Positions 1,102 to 50,216 are shown, numbered from the stretch's first letter. The stretch: 64,000 bases of DNA from Vermamoeba vermiformis (GCA_045837725.1 JBEWZL010000132.1:1-64000), one strand, 5' to 3'. The notes: a model not told the origin generated them from the letters alone. Numbers and translations: made by a program.

Positions 1102-3541
1102 ATGAGTGACAGATCTACTGGTAAGAAAATAATTTATTTAATAATTTCCGAAAATTGTTCGAGTTTTACGTAATGTCGTTTTAACACCAAATACTATAGA
1201 TTCCTGGGTCGATTCCATTGATATGTCAGATATATTTAATGACTATGTTGATGACACCACTACGACAGATCCTTTCGACGACGTTGACATGTCGTCGATG
1301 TTTGAAGGTATTTTTATTACGCACAGTAATTGCGAAAATTAATGATTATTTGCCAACAGATTGGGACCAAAATTTAGCATTAGTTTATCAACCTCCTAAC
1401 AAACGACACTATAATTCAAAGAAATCGACAGTTGTCGAACGACGCCAGCCAACTGTGAAACTTGCACACGGATCACGATTTGAAAACGTTCAAAATGAAC
1501 AATGCTGCTCACAACAATGCTTGCAATTGCTTTCATTATCTCAATTGAAGCGAATTCGATTACCTTTTATTACCAAAAATGAAAGAGAAAGGTGTGTATG
1601 GCATGTCCTTAGTATCTTGCGACTAACACTCAACAGATCAGACTGGTTGTTGGATGTTTTGCGAGCTTCATCAATTAACAAAGGAGACGCATTAAAGATA
1701 GTATACAAGCTTGATGGCCATGTAGTGTGTCGAACTGCGTTCACAAAAGCATTGGGAATCAGCACAAAAAAACTTTCATCAGTAGTTAACTTGGTGAAAA
1801 CACAAGCAGTAGTTATTGTCCCCCATGGTAATAGTCTTCGACAATACAAGACTCCTCAGCGCGACAAAGTGGAAGCCTTCATTCTTGGATTGACAAATGT
1901 ATTTTTTGACGAGCAACCGGACTCTGACGAATGGCATTGCCCAATCATCTTGAACAAAAAACTCTTATATGAAGAGCTGTTAGAACAGAATACTCATAAT
2001 CCCCCTTCAAAGCAAGTGTTTTACAGCACAATTCAACATTACCAATGGATCAAATTTCCGAAAAACACAAGACTAGGAAAATGCGATGAATGTGTCAAGC
2101 TCAGAATGTAAGTACATATGTTTATAGCAGCAGATCTGATTCCAATGTAGAGAACTAAATCGAGCAAAACGGGAAACAGCAGTTCTAGTGCAGCTTATCA
2201 AACAAAAGTTGCGTGATCACAACACTCTCCAAAAGCTTGAACGTCTAACTTACGACACACGAAAAACATTTGATGCTACAATTCTATGGCAGACTATCTG
2301 GGATGGCTACTCAGGAGTTTTAATCCCACACATTTCATGGCCAAATTTCCCAAAGAGTTGGCTTCGCTTGCCGCGTCTTCGATTACAGGTTTCTGGTGTG
2401 ATCAATCATAACTTGGGAGTGAAAGAGCTGTATGTGTCTATAGCCCAGCAATTCGATCACGACAGCAATTACAGCATGAATCTACTGGCTATTCATATCT
2501 CAAAACAGCTTGCCAACGGACACTCTCTCCCTTCAAAATTAGTATTCCAATCAGACAACTGTTGGAGAGAGAACAAAAATATTTTTGTTCTTGGATTCTT
2601 TGCAGTTATCCTGCTGAAGAATCTCACCAAAGATATCTATTTCATCTGTTTACTGCAAGGACACACACATACAGATATTGACCAGCAAAATGTCCCGTTC
2701 GCAAAGGGACTAAAGTCATATGATTTGAAGACAGGTGCAATTGAAGATGTACAGCATTACGTTGATAATTGCTATGAAGAACAACCCCCATCAATCCATT
2801 ATGTGTCGACAATTTGGGACCTTAAATCTTGGATAGCCCCCTATCTACCAAAGTTGCAGGGGCATACCAAACCTCACGTCTTTTGGTTAACTCGAAATGG
2901 CAATGGGCATGTCGTTATGCGCTGGCGAGACTTCACTTCGACTGGTAATTATTCCATGTTTTGTATATAATTTCGAATTTAAACTTTCCATAGATGAGCA
3001 ATGGCAAGGAGGAGAAGATGGAGAACCAATCACAATTCTCACTGGGTTACCAGATGGCCAACCTCAACCAGTCAAACCGCACAAAATTGAAGATAACATA
3101 ATAAGTGCGACACGTCGAACTTACGACAAATTGTCCGAAGAGGAGCAACAGTATTATGAGCACCTGTTTCAGGGAAGACAAGTGGAAGATGATGATACGG
3201 CATTAAGGTTTTTGTCAGTTCAGCTTGAACAACCTTCCACTGTTGATTCCCCTCTTAGCTTCCTTCCGAAGCAAAAGCAGGTCAAGTGGAAATCGACAAC
3301 TAAAGTAACTGTTCTGACAAAAGCAGCAGTTATTAACAACCCTATCCAAACCAATATTCAACTTGACGAGGATGATATTGACGATTATGACGCACCAATC
3401 ATCATGCAACCAAGTTCTGAGACTGCTTGGACTGCAAAGCAATTCCGAGGACTAACCACTGCCAATTACGGTCGTTCACAACGTCAACGCTCCGTTCAAA
3501 ATTATGCAGAAAAACTTAACAATAACACAAACGACGAATAA
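1102..3541 (+). mobile_element. Spliced DDD transposase of the Sola-like / DUF7869 type, apparently intact (about 6 exons)
   Basis: ATG at 1102, and GT-AG introns join ORFs 1218-2111, 2188-2970 and 2897-3541. Motifs: CC-x3-C, VCRTAF..ALGIS, KCDEC, TIWDG, QSDNCWRENKN, GHTHTDIDQ. Confidence 0.75.
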
Positions 3542-30080: not shown

Positions 30081-30617
30081 TACTTTATTTACTCATGTTA
30101 ATATTGAAAAATCTCTTCTCTGTAGTTAGAGTCCGAAAACAAAAATAAACTAACTTTTTTGAAATTTACTCTGTTGGTGAACCACATTCGTTCTGGCTGC
30201 CCTTCCACGACGAACAAGAAAAATTCATTTCACGAACACCAACGCTTGGGAGGCTACTAATTGAGTCCTGAGCTTTAGCATAGTTTAATTTTTCTTGTTC
30301 GGCGATCACACCGTTTGTGGAACTTCGCATTTATGCCACCTTGCAATTCCTAGGAGTGACTTAATTTAACCCGAAGTTCATTTTTCTGCTCTATCCTAGG
30401 CATACGTTAGCGTCGGATCTTGGCTAATTCATGAACTTCGTACCACACTACCAATTGACAAAGGTCAAGTGATTTATTAAATGATTGTTGTTATACTGCA
30501 ATTGAACAAGTGCAAAGACATTGTCGACAAAACACCGCATTAACGGATGTGGTCGTGACAAGTCTAAAGTAGTTACATAGTGGTTATATGAAACAATAAA
30601 GCTCTGGCTGTACGAGC

Positions 30618-31943
30618 TCAGTACTCTTGGCCTCCTTGAGGTTCGTTGGGCTTGAACTTGGGCAACAAGGCCATGTGGATGTTAGGCATTACCTATCAAA
30701 AGAAGGTTATGGTGAGATCTAATTGCTCGAAGAATATTTAAACAGAAGTTGTTCCAATATAGCACTATACGTACACCGCCACCGGCTACAATGCACTTGG
30801 CGTACAACTTGTTCAACTCCTCGTCGTTTTTGAGAGCGAGCGTAATGTGACGGGGAATGATGCGAACTTTCCTGAAAAACACAAATACAACATTAGGCGC
30901 AACTCTGTATTATCACAATGGGCACTGCTACGTACTTGTTGTCACGCGATGCGTTGCCAGCGAGTTCTAGAACTTCAGCGGTCATGTACTCGAGCACGGC
31001 GCACAAATAGACAGGAGCTGATAAAAGCAGATCTGGTCAGTTCCGACGACTCAGACGAAGAAATAACGCCGCCCAGCAATACAATATCAAGGGATTATAG
31101 AGTGCTCGGACTTACCTCCATTACCAACACGGTGCTTGGTCGATTTCTTCATTAGTGTGGCTACACGACCAACGGGGAACGTGAGGCCAGCGCGTTGACT
31201 CTTTGAAGTGGCACCGTTCTTGCCTCCACCTGCCGTGATGTTGCAATTGTACTTGGTGACTGCCTTGGTACCTAATATTACTACGTATTAGTCACTGGAA
31301 TAGAATTATCTGCTGGTAAATTAACTGGATCCGGATCAGATCGAAACAAAGACTACATCCGGTAATTGCATTGTTACCAGTACCAGTTAACAATCTAAAA
31401 TATACTAGTATATAATGCAGTACCTTCGGAGACGGCGTGCTTGGCAAGTTCACCAGGCAAATGCAAACGAACAGCAGTTTGAATTTCACGAGATGTGGTA
31501 GTGTTTTTGCCTTGAATGCTGGTCAATTCGTGGGCAGACTTGGTGATCATATTGAACAAGAACCAAATAGTATCGCCCATAACAGCCATGGCTTTGTTAC
31601 TAATGCCAGTGTCAGGATGCACCTTACCAAATAATGCGTCAGAACAAAATCAATAATCGTAAATGTACAATATTATATTAAACAAGCAAATATAGAGCAA
31701 TTATAAGCGTTAATTAATTTCAGTATCGATAACGTAAATTAAATACTTGATTGATCTGGATATTTTAATCTTATATCATAGGTAACAGGCTAATAATAAA
31801 TAATAACAACAATTATATAAAATAATTAACGCTTATAATTAATTTGAGTTTGAACGGCCAGATTCACTCACTTGTTTAAGAACCTTGTAAATGTAAGTGC
31901 TCCAGTTCATAGTACCGCTTCTTTTTTGTCCACGTTTACCCAT
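30618..31943 (-). CDS. Single-chain histone H2B-H2A fusion (doublet), 226 aa, 6 exons
   Basis: Exons 31943-31872, 31622-31424, 31271-31116, 31017-30936, 30871-30775 and 30692-30618, all GT-AG and in frame. The H2B motifs ([46 protein letters not shown]) run into H2A motifs ([49 protein letters not shown]). Confidence 0.95.
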
Positions 31944-32112
31944 TGTGCTGTGTTTGATGTGGACGTTTGTGGGTGCCAAACAAAAATAAAGATCTGAATT
32001 AAAATTTCCAGGAACATACGATCTGATTTTCGGTAGGGGAACCAGAAAAAATACGGAACAAACACTACTACGTGCGGAAATAATTTATAATAGTACAAAT
32101 ACAACTTGTTTC

Positions 32113-35100
32113 TTAATTTTCAACGCTTATTAACACGAGATCTATAGCACTGCTACTCTCCGAGTTTGTGGCAGCTTTGTTCAGTCCGTCTTGAGTGTAT
32201 ATAGGCACTCGCTCACCAGTCGCTTGGTCTCGGTAGTGCAATAATATGGTCTTGCCCTGAACACGATTACAATCGTTAGAACAAGGGAAAACAAAAGTAG
32301 ATCGCGTGTCATACCTCTTCCCCAAAATACATTTCTACGAGCTTACTGATCGATAACAAGTTGAATTGATTTCGCTCGATCATTATACTCTGGCGACGGT
32401 TTCCTAACTCACAATTCAAACTGATAAGTTGCTGAAAAAACATGTTAGTTCGGATCGACTAGATTTGTCACAAAAAAAAATACTTACTTGTGTCTCTCTA
32501 GCTTTCTTTCTGAACGCAGCTAATCTCTTTTTCTTCCACTGATCGAAAGTAACTTGCTCTGCGAAATCATTAGCATTGTGTGAGTTTTCTTGTTGCTCGA
32601 TCTACAACTTACCAGCGAGCTGTGGGCTGATCTCCAAAAATCTCAAATAAGAAATCATCAACGTCTTGTTGATGTTCTCTTCGAGCAGATTGACAAGGGT
32701 CTCTTTATCAGTCTCGTGCTTCGTGCAGAACACGCAAGCCACGTGCGAAAACATATCACTGCCGTATTCCAACTCGAAGGCATAGGGCTCCTCTGTACCA
32801 TAATAATATTAACACATATGCGCTGATAAGGCAAAGTAAGCTTACCCTCGTAAGTTCTATGCAAGACGACCTCGTCCAAGCCAATTTGATATTTGAGCAC
32901 CAACTTGCGTTCCTTGTTGGTCTGGATCTTGGTCTTGGTGTACAAGAACAAATCATTGAACAAAAAGTAATAGCCACGTGATTTGTTCCTGCTGGCCTCG
33001 TTAAAGCGGAACAACTCTCCTTCAGACACCAAATAACGTCCTTCCTTGATCAAATTCAGATCCTAATCGAACAATCCACATTAATATATATATTACAGTT
33101 AGTATTTTCATTTGACGTACGTCTTTGTTTGATTTTCTGAGCTGATTTTCAATTTCTTGTACGCGCATCAAGTTCTCACGGTCACCGCGCTTCTTGTTGC
33201 TCTTGCCTACGAGTGTCTCGATCAAATTGTACGCATTCACCGTGACTGGATGATCGGCCGTGTTGCGCGACTGCTTTTCTAACTCCTGTAATTAAACAGG
33301 TTAGTTTCAACACGCTCTTTTCACATCAAGTAAGGGCACTTACGGATAATAAGAGCGGGTATTTACAAATTCGTTGAATGGGCTTAATCAACAAGGCGTT
33401 AATGTCCAAGTTTCGGCACTCGCGTCGCAAGTAACAGTACTATATTTACAGACATTAGGGACGAAGTAAATACACGAGTTAATCGTTCGAAACTTACTTC
33501 TAAGAAAATATCCAAATCGTTATTTGTTGCTCGAAGTTCTTTGATGTTTTGATTGACGGAGTCTTGTTTGCTGCAAAATTCCAAATAGACATCGAGATCT
33601 TGAGCCTAATAATAGATCATTCGTTAAAACCAAGAATTGACCTATAAAAAGGAACATCGTACCATATCTACGAAGCACTTGGCAATATTCATATGTGTGG
33701 GCTTATCCAACACCTTCTCGAACATTCCTAACAGCTTCTTGTGCACTTTGTACAAGTCTTCAATGTTCGCGAACATCTTGTCTAAACTTTCAGCCGACAA
33801 AATTTCTTTGCTTCTCAACGGTTGCAAGAAGATCTAAAATATTTTAATATTGAGCATAATGCAGCATTAAATGGAAAGGTTGTTACTTACTTCAATAATG
33901 ACTGATAGATCGTAAACGTAGTCTTTTTCCGTTAGAATGATCTCCTTAATCAAGTTATTATCGGTCTTAATTCGCTCCTTTAACTCGCTCGTCGATTGAT
34001 CTTCCAAATTACTATAAATAGACATTAGCAAGAAGTCAAATCAATAGTCCATTCAAACCAAAACTTACGTCTCGTCCTCTTCTTTTGCCGATTCAGTCAA
34101 TGCTTTCGACCCTCGTTTGGAAGCTTATTAAGAATAATATGTTAGCCCTAGAACGATTAAAATATTAAGAATGATGCGTACATGACTCGGACTGGCCATC
34201 GAGTCTTTGTTTAGTCACCGAGGAAGTCTGAAGAGCCTTTTCAATATCGTCTGTCGATACACCTGTCGAGTTCCTTGAAGGCTAAAAATTAAACATAATT
34301 AGTTAGAAATTGGAATTAAGTAATTACTTGGGAACAGTTTGGGACTTACTCCACCGCCAGACAGTTGTTCCTTATGTCTGAACCACTTTCTCAGCTTCGG
34401 CTGACCTTCGCCTTGAGTATTAGCAGGGGCAGTTTCAGGCGAAGAGGCGGCATCGGGCGTTGAAGATCTGGACGCATCCAGGCTGTGCGATGAGATTGTT
34501 TTGCCAATAATGCTATTTTACGTTAATTCATGATTACTGACTATTTTATACGCTTACTCAAACTCGTCGCCGCTAATGGCATTACGCTTAGTGGATCCGC
34601 TGGAAATCTTGGGCGGCAATGTTTTGAACTTTTCTTTATCTTTCCTCTTGGACTTCTTCTCTTTCTTTGACTCCTCTTTAGGACTAATAGGAGGTGTTGA
34701 GACGCTAGAGTTCAGTGAGCTCCTGTGGTACCGTTAGAACTAATTCTGGATCCGATCTGATTATTACTTACGCGCCGGATGCAGAATCAGACAACTCGAG
34801 TTCATCTTTGCTGGAAGACGATAACCCCTTTGACTTCCTCGAGCCCTTCAGTTTCTTGCTACTGGACAGCTTCTCCTTCAACTTTTCTTTGTCTTTTTTC
34901 GTCAACGAGTCGCTGTGGCGCGATGACTTTGGCAATTGCGAATCACTCGCCATTCTGTTCATAGGTGGTTGCTCTAAACAACAATTAGTTACAAATGCAG
35001 CATATGACATATTAATAGGCTTTGTGGCAATTTAAATATATGTCTTAGTCAAAGCACGTACCGTGAGAAGGAGCGCGGTCAGGTTGATTCTCGGGCACTT

Positions 35101-44619: not shown

Positions 44620-44967
44620 CTAAATTTTGTTGAACGCAAAAATGTCTACTGAACGAATTTGGTCTTCATCTGCTTGCAAAATTTGATCGGTAAGGTCGTC
44701 GACCGACAATTCGTCTTCAATAGTGCTTATAATGCGCATTTTTACAATTCCATAAGCGATAGGGATAATTTGTACAGCTCCCCAGCAAACCAGACCTGGC
44801 ATCTGGATTGATTTAATTTTGTTCTCGAGTTCTTTGAGCACGTCTTCTGCAAGATTGGGTTCGCTGAGAGAAATATCGAATATTACGGATGATTTGCCCA
44901 TGATAGTCTTTCGGGTGCTATGTTTTGCTTTCTGCTTCTGATCTTCCTCTGTTGTTTGAAGGATATG
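44620..44967 (-). CDS. Elongation factor 1-beta/delta-like guanine nucleotide exchange domain (5' end uncertain)
   Basis: KSSVIFDI...IKSIQMPGL..WG.....IAYGI.K...IEDE.SVD.L...SVDI.AFNKI. Confidence 0.85.
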   Translation of the reverse strand, partial: HILQTTEEDQKQKAKHSTRKTIMGKSSVIFDISLSEPNLAEDVLKELENKIKSIQMPGLVCWGAVQIIPIAYGIVKMRIISTIEDELSVDDLTDQILQADEDQIRSVDIFAFNKI

Positions 44968-45221: not shown

Positions 45222-47514
45222 CTAATCCGTGTGGCTATCCGCAAGAAATTCAAAATTTTGTTCAAATTGCGCTATGACAGTCTCCATTGATGGTCGATCT
45301 TTAGGATCTTTGCTCCAGCACTTTTCAATAATGTCAACCAGTCGCTGATCTGTTCCTTCGGGCAGCTTTTCGTGTGCGCCTTTGTCTCGAATATCAATGG
45401 CTGCGGCGAATATATCTTCGTCGTCAAAAGGAGCCTTTCCAGTCAGAATCTCGAAGCACACATTAGCGAACATCCAGACATCTGTGAGTCAAAAGAGGTC
45501 GGTTAGCGAGACATCCATTGCTGTCGTGTCGGACGTACCTGACTTTGGCGAGTACACTTGACTTGCAATCGACTCTGGTGCCATCCACTTGACTGGTCCA
45601 ATGTTGGTCTTGGTTTGACCCATCTGCTCATTTGAAGTCACGAATCGTGACATGCCAAAGTCCTGGAAAAAAAGTGTCAAAAACTATTGTGACGCAGTCA
45701 CCGACGAATGGTGTAAACACGGTGGAATTTCACAGTGACGAATTGCTTGGAAAGGAGGAGGCGATACGTACCGAAATCTTTGGTTGACCTCGATTGAGCA
45801 AGATATTTCGTGCAGCCAAGTCTCTGTGCACGATATCATTGGTGTGCAAGTGGTAGACACCGCATGCTGTGCCATACATCAACTTCAATCTCTCGTTGAA
45901 AGACAGGTCAGGATTGTCCTTGAGATACTTCTCGAGACTGCCACCGTTGCAGTACTCGAGCACAATGGCTGGCTGAGCGCCGTCAGTGCAGATACCAATC
46001 AACTGAACGATGTTTGGATGAGGTTTCATCTTGCAGTAGAGATCTGCTTCGTGTTGGAAGTCTTGCAATGCTTCGATTTGATGGTAGTACTTGACTGCTA
46101 CTTTCGCGTTGCTGAATTTTGCGATGAATACTTTGCCGTAGTTTCCGCTACCGATTTCTTTCTCGAGCTTGATCTGCGAAGCCATGACACGGTTCTTTTC
46201 GTTGCTAATGTTCGGACTTCCAGACGGGCTGCCGTTCAGTGAAGGCACTGCGCCGTAGATCGTTTCGCCGGAGTTGGTGCTCGTCAGCTCGTCTTCGTCT
46301 TTCTTCTCTTTCTTCTTTTTCTTTTGCATCTTTTTCACGCCAAAGAAAACTCCGAGGAATATTGCGGCGGCACCAGCGACTGAGAGCGACACGCCGAGGC
46401 CAATGCCCAAAGCGTCCGGTCCTGGCGGAGCTGTTCCGTTGACAGATGGTTGATTGACATTGTTGACAACATTAGGCGTGACTTGTGTAGGACTATTGCT
46501 CGTAGGAGTACCAGCTGTTGGCGGAGGATTTTTGAGCTCTGCAAATAGTCTGTTAGTTCATGAACGGCTCGTTCAGAGAAAACATACCAAGACTCATAGT
46601 CGGACCTGTAAAATTGACCGATCGTCGACTAGCGAACTCCGTCTCATCACTGCCACTAGCTATTAGCATAAAAGTGAGCCTGGCTGTTAAATTATTAGTT
46701 TGGATCCAAAGTCGCATTTCGATCTGGTACCTGGTGACGGGTTTGCAGGAAGCCAAGCTGTTACTACGGTTGTAACATCAAACACCATTTTTGCATCTGC
46801 TATGGGAGGTATGATGTTTGTCGTGATATTCGCGTAATTGGTGAGAAAATCCGCTACGAAGCGATCACTTGTCAGTTGTGATTGATTTTGGGTCAAGACT
46901 AGACTATAAAGTCCTGTTCAATACTAATTGAATTTTAAAATCATACCCATATTATTCCAAGTAATTGAACCCGAATTCCAAGTTTGAGTTGAATTGCAGA
47001 TGCACAACGTCATCGTTTCTCCACTTGCAACAAGAATATTATCGCCAAAGTACAAAATAAGCCTATGCGTTGGTAACAATTAATCATGATTTATGGCAGT
47101 ATAGTCGAAGCCTTACTTGGCGCTGATCACTTCCCAGCTGGTCCGATTGGCAGGAAAGTCCCAACCGACAAAGCCGCGAAAGTAATACAAATCAGTTTCG
47201 TTAGGACTTCGTACTCTGATTACATCTAAAAATATATCTCGAAATACATCGTCTGGGAAACCTCTGGCAACGAATCCGTCATCTGAGCTGATAAGATCGA
47301 GGGCTGTAAGAATATAAATTGTCAATACTCACAAATTGAATTAAATTAATATGTGGTTAAGCTTAGGCGGTTAGGTTTTTTAAAGGTGAATAAAAATTTA
47401 GAATTGATTTAACAAAAAGTATTTTTTTTGCTGGATCCATCACTTACTTTGAGAGTACGTTAGGCAGCTAAGCGCATAAACGCATAATATTGTAATTAAA
47501 GTCCTGCAGGTCAT
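45222..47514 (-). CDS. Receptor tyrosine kinase-like protein, copy 1 (signal peptide, DNRLRE/CBM96-like ectodomain, TM, kinase)
   Basis: Signal MTCRTLITILCVYALSCLTYSQ, TM GIGLGVSLSVAGAAAIFLGVFFGV, GSGNYG, HRDLAARN, DFG, PVKWMAPE. Confidence 0.9.
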
Positions 47515-47847: not shown

Positions 47848-50216
47848 CTAATCGCTTTCACTTTCGCCAATAAAATCGAACTTTTGTTCGAACTCTTCAA
47901 TAACAGTGTCCATTGACGGCCTGTCATTCGCGTCTTTGCTCCAGCACTTTTCGAGAATTTCGACCAGTCGCGGATCTGTACCTTCGGGCAGTTCAGGATG
48001 TTTTCCGTTATCTCGGACATCAATAGCGACAGTGAAAATATCTTCGTTCTCGAAGGGAATCTTATTGGTGAGAATTTCATAGCATACATTAGCGAACATC
48101 CAGACATCTATTCGTTGAAAGTTGTTAGTGGACAACAGATCCAAAAGTTCGTTTGTAGAACGTACCTGACTTTGGCGAGTACACTTGACTTGCAATCGAC
48201 TCTGGAGCCATCCACTTGACTGGTCCGATGTTGGTCTTGGTGTGGCCCATCTTCTCGTTTGAAGTCACGAATCGTGACATGCCAAAGTCCTGGAAAAAAT
48301 GTGTCAAAAACTGATCTGTCGACAGATGGTGTAAAGACGGTTAACTTTGCTGTTACAATGACTGATTGCTTGGAAAGGAGCGAGTGATACGTACCGAAAT
48401 CTTTGGTTGACCTCGATTGAGCAAGATATTTCGTGCAGCCAAATCTCTATGCACGATATCGTTGATGTGCAAGTGACACACGCCACAAGCCGTGCCGTAC
48501 ATCAACTTGATCTTCTCTTCATCGGATAACAGTGGGTTGGCTTTGATGTACTTGTCGAGACTGCCACCGTTGCAATACTCGAGCACAATGGCTGGCTGAG
48601 TGCCATCAGTGCAAATACCAATCAACTGAACGATGTTTGGATGAGGTTTCATCTTGCAGTACAGATCTGCTTCGTGTTGGAAGTCTTGCAATGCTTCGAT
48701 TTGATGGTAGTACTTGACTGCTACTTTTGCATTGTTGAACTTTGCAATGTACACTTTGCCGTAGTTTCCACTGCCAATCTCTTTGTCGAGCTTGATTTGT
48801 GAGTTCTTAATGTGCGTGTTCACGACGCTGTTGGGACTACTGCCACCAGCGACACTAGAGCTAAGAGGCACTGCTTCGTAGATAGTTTCAGTTGGTCTAG
48901 GACTCTCAGCATCAGCAGCTTTCTTCTCTTTCTTCTTCTTTTGCATTCTTTTCAGGCCGAAGAACAATCCGAGGAATATGCCTGCTGCTCCAGCGACTGA
49001 CAGTGACACGCCGAGGCCGATGCCTAGCGAATCTGGTCCAGCAGGGGCAGTGCTGTTTAGATTGGAGTTGTTATTGTCCACTTGAGGTGTAAGCGCGTTT
49101 GGCGTGACTCCCGCGGGACTGTTGCTGGCCACCGGTGCACCGGATGTAGGGCCACTAACAGGTCCCGCGACAGGTCCTGCGACAGGTGTTGTTACTGGCG
49201 CTGCTACTGGCGCCACTGGTGCGACAGGCGGAGGTGTTCCGAACGCTTTAAATTCCGTTAGTTCATGAATGAATGGTTCAGTGAAAACATACTGAGTGAC
49301 AGGGTTGGAGGCGAGTATTTTGTCGATCTCTTGCTGGCAAATTGAGTTTCTTGGGCTGTAGCAGCATTGAGTATCAAGGTCAGCCGTGCTATAGTCAAAA
49401 TAAATAAGAATAAGTCTACTGTCGTCGGAAAATTGTGCGCCGATCCGTACCTGGCGCGGGGTTCGCTGGCAACCACGTATTAAGGGCGTTGGTAATATCA
49501 TACGTCATTTTACCGGCCGATAATGGAGGAATTACCAGGGATGAAAGTATTTGAAAATTTGTGCGCCAAGCAGCTGATTTAAAAAAACGGTTAGATCACA
49601 CTTGTTTTTTACTGTCGGAATTATAATCGAATCATACCCATGCTATTCCATGTGAATGTAGCTGAATCCCATGGGCTAGTTGAGACGCATAAGCCCAAGG
49701 TCATTGTGTCTCCACTAGCGATCAGAACGGTGTCGCCGAAGGGCAAAGTCAGTCTTGAAGTATTAGATCAGTTAATATAATAATAACTTCGTAGTGTAAA
49801 ATAGTATTATTAACCTACAAGGCACTGCTGACCTGCCATTCGGTTCTATTAGCTGGGAAGTCCCATCCAACAAATCCGTAGAAGTAGTAAGTTGGATATG
49901 AGTCACCACTCGTAGGACTGCGAACCCTAATTACATCAGGAAATAAATCCGTCCACGTGTAAGTAACGTCGTCCAAGCCTACGAATCCATCATCCGTGCT
50001 TATAAAATCGATTGCTAAATAAACAAAAAAATGGTTAAAACTAGGTCGTATATTATTGTCTTTTGGGCCTTTGACAAAATAAAAAGAAAATTTTGAATTT
50101 ACGAAAATTTAACGGTCAGTGCACCGATCTGCCACACGTTTTGTTTACTTACTTTGTGCGGAGGATAGTGCCCACAACAATGACAGTAATATAATAAATA
50201 TAGTCTTGCCAGCCAT
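47848..50216 (-). CDS. Receptor tyrosine kinase-like protein, copy 2 (tandem paralog)
   Basis: Signal MAGKTIFILLLSLLWALSSAQ, PVA-repeat stalk, TM, HRDLAARN, PVKWMAPE; same exon structure as copy 1. Confidence 0.9.

Follow-up and report, generated by a model that had tools for sequence, protein, structure and literature searches.

We analysed a stretch of 64,000 nucleotides (nt) from Vermamoeba vermiformis (GCA_045837725.1, JBEWZL010000132.1:1-64000; the whole stretch is here called the window), whose minus strand carries at 30618..31943 a gene for a histone doublet, in which an H2B, a linker and an H2A follow one another in a single chain. A sequence-only reading of the window had proposed six in-frame exons for one protein of 226 amino acids (aa), and this structure was reproduced, the exons amounting to 681 nt for 226 aa and a TGA stop. 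The five introns are all GT-AG, measure 249, 152, 98, 64 and 82 nt in the direction of transcription and lie in phases 0, 1, 1, 2 and 0. A CTRAY-like branch site is found 20-25 nt from the acceptor in four of the five, and the GC content is 38-54% in exons and 24-46% in introns.

Twenty of 23 listed public runs, belonging to 11 studies, hold part of the gene stretch. None holds more than 0.25 of its words, as would be expected of exons alone. We aligned four of the 23 (X5, X16, X19 and X21), none of which is on record as DNA, X19 being of unknown kind; their contigs carry neither strand nor expression level. X21 consists of raw RNA reads of a relative ∼90% identical and contributed 307 reads out of ∼13 million. 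Taken together, these four runs show each of the five introns spliced out where predicted, and depth is zero in every run for the two bins located entirely within introns 1 and 2.

Exon 1 (coding part 31872..31943) provides the start codon, an 11-residue basic N-terminal tail and H2B helix 1; both X16 record 2 and X5 record 12 extend over it and continue, spliced, into exon 2, so that intron 1 (31623..31871) is skipped in both runs. Exon 2 (31424..31622) encodes H2B L1, the divergent helix 2 with L2, helix 3 and the start of helix C, and matches the Pfam Histone family by itself (E=2e-4). The joint across intron 2 (31272..31423) occurs in all four runs, a signal that may come partly from other H2B transcripts. 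Exon 3 (31116..31271) contains the H2B C-terminal helix with K120, a Gly/Ser/Lys linker, and the H2A N-helix, helix 1 and L1. Intron 3 (31018..31115) is skipped by 36 X21 reads and one X5 contig, and intron 4 (30872..30935) by a joint in all four runs; between them lies exon 4 (30936..31017), which carries H2A helix 2 with the acidic-patch residues E56, E61 and E64. Exon 5 (30775..30871) adds H2A L2, helix 3, D90/E91/E92 and the start of the docking domain. Intron 5 (30693..30774) is again skipped in all four runs, with one or two boundary differences in X16 and X21, and exon 6 (coding part 30618..30692) completes the docking domain, LLPK and a C-terminal tail ending GQEY before the TGA. The 3' untranslated region is at least 140 nt long (30478..30617), X5 record 8 extending to 30478 and X19 record 3 to 30492. 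A search for a histone stem-loop gave no Rfam match at E<=1 in 30200-32200.

Exon 3 holds the end of H2B (KAVTKY, residue 93) as well as the linker and the beginning of H2A (QRAGL, residue 116), the linker being 18 residues between the equivalents of H2B Y121 and H2A R20. No Met occurs between residues 49 and 131 of the 226-aa protein, and the H2A half thus has no start codon of its own; together with the position of the junction, this makes a two-gene reading of the locus impossible, and the earlier argument that the fusion is no splicing artefact stands. Spliced RNA across the linker, the check that had been proposed, was also found. Single contigs from separate studies bridge H2B, linker and H2A, namely X16 record 2 (404 nt, nine differences, exons 1-2-3 and into H2A) and X5 record 10 (355 nt, of a more diverged type, exons 2-3 joined to exon 4), which contradicts the absence of a spliced transcript. 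X19 record 4 matches 31135-31236 with 0 differences, and X19 records 4 and 6 part-cover exon 3. Unlike core histones, the 226-aa chain leaves no free H2A N-tail and no separate H2A and H2B polypeptides, as judged from coding and RNA. Retention of intron 2 would give a 99-aa truncated H2B. Nine AG dinucleotides occur in that intron, of which seven lead to early stops, one is the predicted acceptor and one adds three residues; the last, at 31281, has no listed read support and was rejected as an alternative acceptor.

In the diverged relative sampled by X21, 21 of 31 changed codons are silent where 22.5% were expected (p=1e-7), in a comparison of 37 differences among 40 of 89 rows that may include a few exon-2 rows from another H2B and whose 88% mapping cut-off favours conserved reads. 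On this evidence the doublet gene is under purifying selection. A contig of depth 2 in X19 (31269-31870) joins exon 1 straight to exon 3, skipping exon 2; this joint is out of frame because the phases are 0 and 1, and is probably splicing noise. We also noted loose read ends at 31247 and 31454 in X21, X5 and X19, from an H2B-like second transcript with another, acidic-then-basic tail after the C-terminal helix, and in X21 and X5 these include reads with a canonical-type helix 3. They suggest that the same samples contain a separate H2B or else a second doublet. A tblastn search of the window alone revealed no second histone in its 64 kb.

Anatomy of the fused protein

We compared 51 eukaryote-type doublets, 18 canonical pairs and 15 viral doublets in a residue map numbered on the human reference, with H2B H49 and H2A R20 as anchors. 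The H2B half of the Vermamoeba protein is 64% identical to human H2B and no more than 57% to any of the 15 viral doublets; for the H2A half the values are 69% and no more than 59%. Identity to human is high in H2B helix 3/helix C (32/35) and H2A 46-96 (42/51), and low in H2B 63-86 (4/24), H2A 30-45 (6/16) and H2A 97-113 (8/15), the first of these low values bearing out the earlier description of H2B helix 2 as highly divergent. The acidic patch, the H2B ubiquitination lysine K120 and LLPK, which had been listed as retained, are all present, and the position of H2A K119 reads F (LLPKFK). The DNA-contact arginines R29, R42 and R77 of H2A are kept, and the isoelectric point (pI) is 9.9.

These features recur across the doublets. 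H2A E56, E61, E64, D90, E92, R77 and R81 and H2B E105, H109, E113, K116 and K120 are invariant in all 51 eukaryote-type doublets. Other positions separate the doublets from the canonical pairs: H2B Y83 is kept in one of 51 doublets (and in none of the 15 viral ones) against 16 of 18 pairs, E71 in one of 51 against 15 of 18, and R79 in none of 51 against 11 of 18, with a further six pairs having K. H2B S64 has become D in 41 of 51 doublets and in 0 of 18 pairs. T101 is kept in 11 of 51 doublets against 18 of 18 canonical pairs, and the H2A L1 loop is also altered in the doublet family. In the Vermamoeba protein, H2B E71 and E76, which we take to be H4-contact residues, read N and S, Y83 reads I and R79 is also changed, a departure from the canonical H2B-H4 interface. 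In sequence the divergence thus falls chiefly on the faces that contact H4, the opposite dimer and the H3-H4 tetramer, the reader-facing surface being intact.

An exon-3 query identified two proteins among 20 candidates, P0001 and P0002, of which P0001 is 74% identical over the whole length of exon 3. P0001 has 218 aa in a contiguous frame, which may come from a transcript, from a gene lacking introns or from a viral copy, and is 85% identical to the Vermamoeba protein in both halves. This orthologue stood in for the spliced Vermamoeba protein in structure prediction. Pfam found PF00125 twice and PF16211 in it, and AlphaFold2 with an alignment gave a confident model (predicted local distance difference test 90.6, predicted template modelling score 0.85) of two histone folds joined by a low-confidence linker with block means of 59-88. 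The best Protein Data Bank (PDB) matches of the model were engineered single-chain H2B-H2A proteins, with root-mean-square deviations of 1.0-2.2 Å within the top 16 (e.g. 6w4l, 7ybf); the Melbournevirus chain 7n8n_B ranked 38 among the PDB matches, with 36% identity. The model thus predicts that the orthologue folds as an H2A-H2B dimer with a flexible linker, and the structure prediction suggested by the sequence-only reading has been borne out through it.

A family of eukaryote-type doublets

Searches with P0001 and a 38-sequence alignment returned 275 proteins, from which we excluded 67 entries named as animal or human-reference and another 11, unnamed, that are animal-like. Among the remaining 198 (the Vermamoeba protein counted), 181 have a single H2B ahead of a single H2A, and in 148 the linker does not exceed 40 residues and there is no long extension. 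Named members are the Balamuthia mandrillaris 'Histone H2B type 1-A' (P0093, 218 aa), two MMETSP and three EukProt transcripts, and a protein from a metagenome-assembled genome (MAG) labelled 'archaeon' that is probably mis-binned; dozens of environmental doublets join them. Family members are 57-71% identical to the Vermamoeba protein and their linkers run from 5 to 32 residues with no conserved motif, 63 of 77 linkers in the best-scoring short-linker doublets having no Met. By these comparisons the Vermamoeba gene belongs to a family of fused H2B-H2A histones that includes the Balamuthia protein, a family that the sequence-only reading had missed. The host variant that had been proposed is real as a doublet but no one-off, given the orthologue, the Balamuthia protein, the five transcripts and the environmental members.

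The Vermamoeba protein ends GQEY, a degenerate H2A.X-type end without the phospho-serine, outside the SQ(E/D)-hydrophobic motif. Many family members end SQEY, SQEF or SQDY, and P0001 ends AQAF; in Vermamoeba and P0001 the aromatic end has been retained and the serine lost. The relative in X21 (30628-30642) likewise ends Q-E-aromatic with no serine before the Q; there, too, the aromatic residue seems to have been kept after loss of the phospho-site. A C-terminal F, Y or W is found in 59 of the 77 best-scoring short-linker doublets against 16 of 71 low scorers (tail background 9.6%), a contrast biased upward because the scoring profile was built from rows partly chosen for that end. In 26 of these 59 the residue three before the end is S or T (background 14.6%), and 15 carry [ST]Q, which matches the H2A.X pattern as PMC3380720 defines it.

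We computed an unrooted maximum likelihood (ML) tree with the LG+C20 model from 191 linker-free columns and 70 of 92 rows, leaving out the five longest viral branches, 14 environmental doublets and three canonical pairs. A branch with 99/93 support sets 10 viral and two environmental doublets apart from 58 eukaryote-type rows. The latter split into canonical pairs with five other doublets (96/82) and a doublet-only group of 38 (88/79), which holds the Vermamoeba protein, P0001, Balamuthia and all five transcriptome members. Named animal hits mostly had the opposite order, or an H2A start or long spacer, and carp, nematode and human-derived rows group with the canonical pairs, away from the Vermamoeba group. 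Five proteins with near-canonical halves and Lys-rich ends (P0025, P0022, P0038, P0096 and P0138) also fall among the canonical pairs and are apparently further independent fusions.

A structure search of BFVD with the orthologue reached at best 45% identity, to Pithovirus LCPAC304, with marseilleviruses at 39% and 36% and clandestinovirus at 20%, and three scans of IMG/VR (7, 32 and 9 loci) revealed nothing above 56% across the doublet. Three of 24 viral doublet open reading frames (ORFs) end in an aromatic residue and none of the 24 ends Q-x-aromatic. A recent viral gift of the doublet is unlikely on this evidence, and one old eukaryotic fusion is favoured as its origin. The relevance to viral doublets that the sequence-only reading had seen is accordingly qualified: the link to marseilleviruses was not borne out, at 36-39% identity and with an ML position outside the viral doublets, and a position as sister to viral doublets was not rejected.

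Several further members and relatives deserve mention. P0274 is a 369-aa doublet with an aromatic end that also contains ubiquitin-like Pfam domains (PF00240, PF11976). P0102 and P0114 are family members encoded by contiguous ORFs on contigs of 485 kb and 827 kb and group with an MMETSP transcript; the nature of the two contigs, eukaryotic or giant-virus DNA, matters for the question of transfer between hosts and viruses. An intronless member ending SQEF (L008, 17-763), from an amoeba or a virus, is convergent with an F-box/MORN-repeat-like gene (956-2212). A viral contig (L092, 4320-6240) holds two tandem H2B-H2A doublets, one far more diverged than the other. In MAG contigs of GTDB we observed a virus-like H2B-H2A doublet among dense ORFs with a helicase-like gene (L118, 4920-5744), and many eukaryotic histone clusters that point to mis-binning (L119-L182).

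The genomic context of the Vermamoeba gene agrees with a nuclear location. Fifty-two ORFs of the window were scanned with Pfam, giving matches to Tyr-kinase-like kinases, an ABC transporter, a P-type ATPase, a ring-hydroxylating oxygenase, pirin, PAP2, a PH domain, an EF1 GNE domain, a metallo-beta-lactamase fold and several DUFs; no viral hallmark family was found among them. Local GC at the histone gene is 0.40, as in the rest of the window. A dense, intron-poor setting with viral neighbours, as in a viral genome, is thus not what surrounds the doublet gene, which has five spliced GT-AG introns, eukaryotic neighbours and matching GC. With the RNA joints, the purifying selection and the two-fold model of the orthologue, these neighbours uphold the claim of a host-encoded, expressed single-chain H2B-H2A. 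Elsewhere in the window, on the minus strand, an intronless ORF of ∼93 aa (44623-44901) contains only the EF1 guanine-nucleotide-exchange domain (PF00736, E=1e-18), its usual N-terminal part missing, and two adjoining, closely similar single-pass receptor-like Tyr-kinase-like genes (45733-46557 and 48356-49504) are probably a tandem duplication. On the plus strand, three overlapping long ORFs at 1200-3541 match DUF7869 (E=1e-44) and appear to resemble a frameshifted transposon-type element.

Function and origin of the doublet

We consider it fairly probable that the protein is an obligate-dimer H2B-H2A variant histone, deposited beside host H3-H4 and forming looser nucleosomes. It would have originated by fusion of a eukaryotic H2B with an H2A.X-like H2A in a protist nuclear gene, within what would be an old and diverse doublet family. 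Its product would be an obligate, self-pairing H2B-H2A dimer, placed as one unit beside H3-H4, a minority variant that would accompany ordinary H2A and H2B. Its disc face, with the acidic patch and H2B K120, would still look to chaperones and remodellers like that of a normal nucleosome. The H2B-H4 four-helix-bundle surface (E71, E76, R79, Y83), the H2A L1 loop and the docking domain would be remodelled, so that the nucleosomes would be looser or need a matching H4 variant. Fusion would further abolish the free H2A N-tail and bar re-pairing with H2A.Z or other H2A or H2B, and the S/T-x-x-aromatic end of many relatives could serve as a gamma-H2A.X-like damage signal, for which the Vermamoeba lineage has no serine. 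Marseillevirus doublets without the H2B tyrosine do form nucleosomes, less stable ones, according to PMC8357426.

A number of observations weigh against this interpretation. H2A R32 is replaced by T in the Vermamoeba protein, and H2B D68, R72 and E76, kept by most relatives, are altered, which also fits relaxed or non-nucleosomal use. Ordinary H2A and H2B in this genome are represented by the loose read ends only. Support for the family clade (88/79) is moderate and its bootstrap had not settled, and a tree forcing the Vermamoeba doublet together with the viral doublets was not rejected by the approximately unbiased (AU) test (p=0.289). In a quick LG+G4 tree of all 92 rows, which gave long-branch warnings, the Vermamoeba doublet lay close to the viral side; under the mixture model, on 70 rows, it moved into the doublet group. 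The separate phylogenies of the two halves that had been recommended were run and came out largely unresolved because the separate halves are too short, the H2B half joining Vermamoeba weakly with two viral doublets (Shimodaira-Hasegawa-like approximate likelihood ratio test 76). The canonical rows in all these trees include no amoebozoan H2A or H2B, most environmental members come without genomic context and some may be viral, and the upward bias of the aromatic-end contrast belongs here as well.

As to function, an unlikely alternative is that the doublet is expressed and acts outside nucleosomes, where it would mimic the acidic patch, in solution or bound to DNA, and titrate chaperones, remodellers or viral proteins that bind the patch. 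Its models would be the double histone folds of SOS1 and ABTB2, which work outside nucleosomes; for ABTB2-type eukaryotic proteins PMC13088155 reports no evidence that they replace nucleosomal histones. The invariant acidic patch fits such a role, and it is exactly the octamer-joining surfaces (H2B 63-86, H2A 30-45, H2A 97-113) that have drifted. However, H2B helix 3/helix C and H2A 46-96 have stayed near canonical, neither the DNA-contact arginines nor the basic pI has been lost, and nucleosomes still form with viral doublets that are changed more strongly (PMC8357426).

As to origin, a giant-virus doublet could have been domesticated long ago and have gained introns later, which would be compatible with either function and which we rate as rather improbable. 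The halves are closer to human than to any of the 15 viral doublets, the best BFVD match and the IMG/VR scans yielded nothing close, the Q-x-aromatic end is absent from the 24 viral ORFs, and both the 99/93 separation and the lack of viral hallmarks among the neighbouring ORFs speak against it. On the other side stand the domain order shared with viral doublets, the AU result and the weak grouping of the H2B half already described, a top Atlas cluster that mixes Eukaryota (55%) with Nucleocytoviricota, and the loss of H2B Y83 common to the family and the viral doublets.

It is quite improbable that the doublets are survivors, in several protist lineages, of a histone already fused before the last common ancestor of eukaryotes (LECA). 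Such a relic would accord with the great diversity of the family, whose members are only 57-71% identical to the Vermamoeba protein, and with its place between canonical pairs and viral doublets on the trees; but these are unrooted, and faster evolution also yields an intermediate position. The halves are moreover eukaryote-like with an H2A.X-type end, and the nesting of P0025 and P0022 within the canonical pairs indicates that fusion recurs easily. A polyprotein cut in the linker to free H2B and H2A is very unlikely: the linker is flexible, Gly/Lys-rich and modelled with low confidence, but its length ranges from 5 to 32 residues among members, none of its motifs is conserved, and engineered uncut H2B-H2A chains fold as native dimers. 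Mis-assembly or mis-splicing of adjoining H2B and H2A genes is scarcely credible, since the junction lies within one exon with no H2B stop or H2A start, contigs from separate studies bridge it and a contiguous 85%-identical orthologue exists, even if animal 'fusions' have been shown to be mis-annotations (PMC9145170) and many animal hits retain an H2A start inside the chain or carry a long spurious spacer.

Among the publications consulted, PMC11222145, PMC9145170, bioRxiv 10.1101/2021.11.30.470311, PMC8383183, PMC13520046, PMC8357426, PMC10919886, PMC3380720 and PMC13088155, four describe core-histone fusions in eukaryotes as absent or unconfirmed. In the literature searched, consisting of main texts and few subscription papers, we found no published protist or amoebozoan H2B-H2A doublet; Miyake et al. 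2026 could list some. The novelty that had been made dependent on the lack of a characterised orthologous family therefore holds as far as published descriptions go, and an orthologous family is nevertheless present in databases. We tentatively raise the possibility, which we regard as doubtful, that the doublets form an old, widespread and overlooked class of eukaryotic variants, a fused H2B-H2A.X-like doublet with a remodelled H4 interface found across Amoebozoa and perhaps other supergroups, and that this class was the donor of part of the giant-virus doublets or survives from an early fused stage. The rarity of eukaryotic fusions forms part of the case for viral doublets being pre-LECA relics and for tails and variants ruling fusion out; a widespread doublet class would, if true, overturn the idea of a pre-LECA ratchet that keeps core histones on separate chains. 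With a conserved nuclear family verified at the transcript level, it becomes testable whether giant-virus hosts could have supplied ready-made doublets, and also how a nucleus copes with a histone whose partner is fixed and whose H2A has no free tail. Chromatin biochemistry gains, in addition, a natural single-chain dimer in which the H4 interface is altered.

Comparison with known systems

With core histones the Vermamoeba protein shares the histone folds, the H2A docking domain, the acidic patch and H2B K120. H2A.X is defined by an SQ(E/D)-hydrophobic C-terminus (Talbert et al. 2012, PMC3380720); the C-terminal Q-E-Y is shared, whereas Gly in Vermamoeba or Ala in P0001 replaces the Ser, and the H2A is fused behind an H2B.

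Other eukaryotic chains combine H2B-like and H2A-like folds in this order. The SOS1 H domain, ABTB2/Cca3 and Cca3S, as described in PMC13088155, are 22-30% identical to histones, mostly multidomain and regulatory, whereas the Vermamoeba protein is 64-69% identical and has no other domain. The HSIH-DHF proteins are single-domain double histone folds 60% or more identical to nucleosomal histones, including H2B-then-H2A forms (PMC13088155). Both of these properties are shared by the Vermamoeba protein. From database sequence and structure searches (Miyake et al. 2026, via PMC13088155) they are reported from Animalia only, namely Chordata, Arthropoda, Nematoda and Mollusca. In the accessible part of PMC13520046, on their H3/H4 counterparts, 'amoeb' and 'protist' have 0 occurrences. 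Set against that review description, the Vermamoeba doublet differs in being protist-type, RNA-verified and marked by family-specific substitutions, while the animal entries seen here have canonical halves and often an internal H2A start.

The Marseilleviridae doublet (Melbournevirus, PDB 7n8n chain B; Liu et al. 2021, PMC8357426) and other Nucleocytoviricota doublets, including clandestinovirus CV_ORF456, share the H2B-then-H2A order, a connector of ∼20 residues, the absence of a free H2A N-tail and the loss of the H2B tyrosine, whose H4-stacking role is described in PMC8357426. Unlike them, the Vermamoeba gene is nuclear, with five spliceosomal introns and eukaryotic neighbours, and its product is nearer to eukaryotic histones, with an intact acidic patch and an H2A.X-like end. 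Marseilleviridae histones are ∼42% or less identical to eukaryotic histones (PMC9145170), against 64% and 69% to human for the two halves here, and the orthologue P0001 is 36-39% identical to marseillevirus and 20% to clandestinovirus doublets. Engineered single-chain H2B-H2A proteins (PDB 6w4l, 7wlp, 2jss, 7ybf) have the same topology and are the top sequence and structure matches, but are laboratory chains of canonical histones and not natural genes. The Vermamoeba doublet, then, resembles viral and engineered H2B-H2A chains, and on context and divergence it is outside the viral family.
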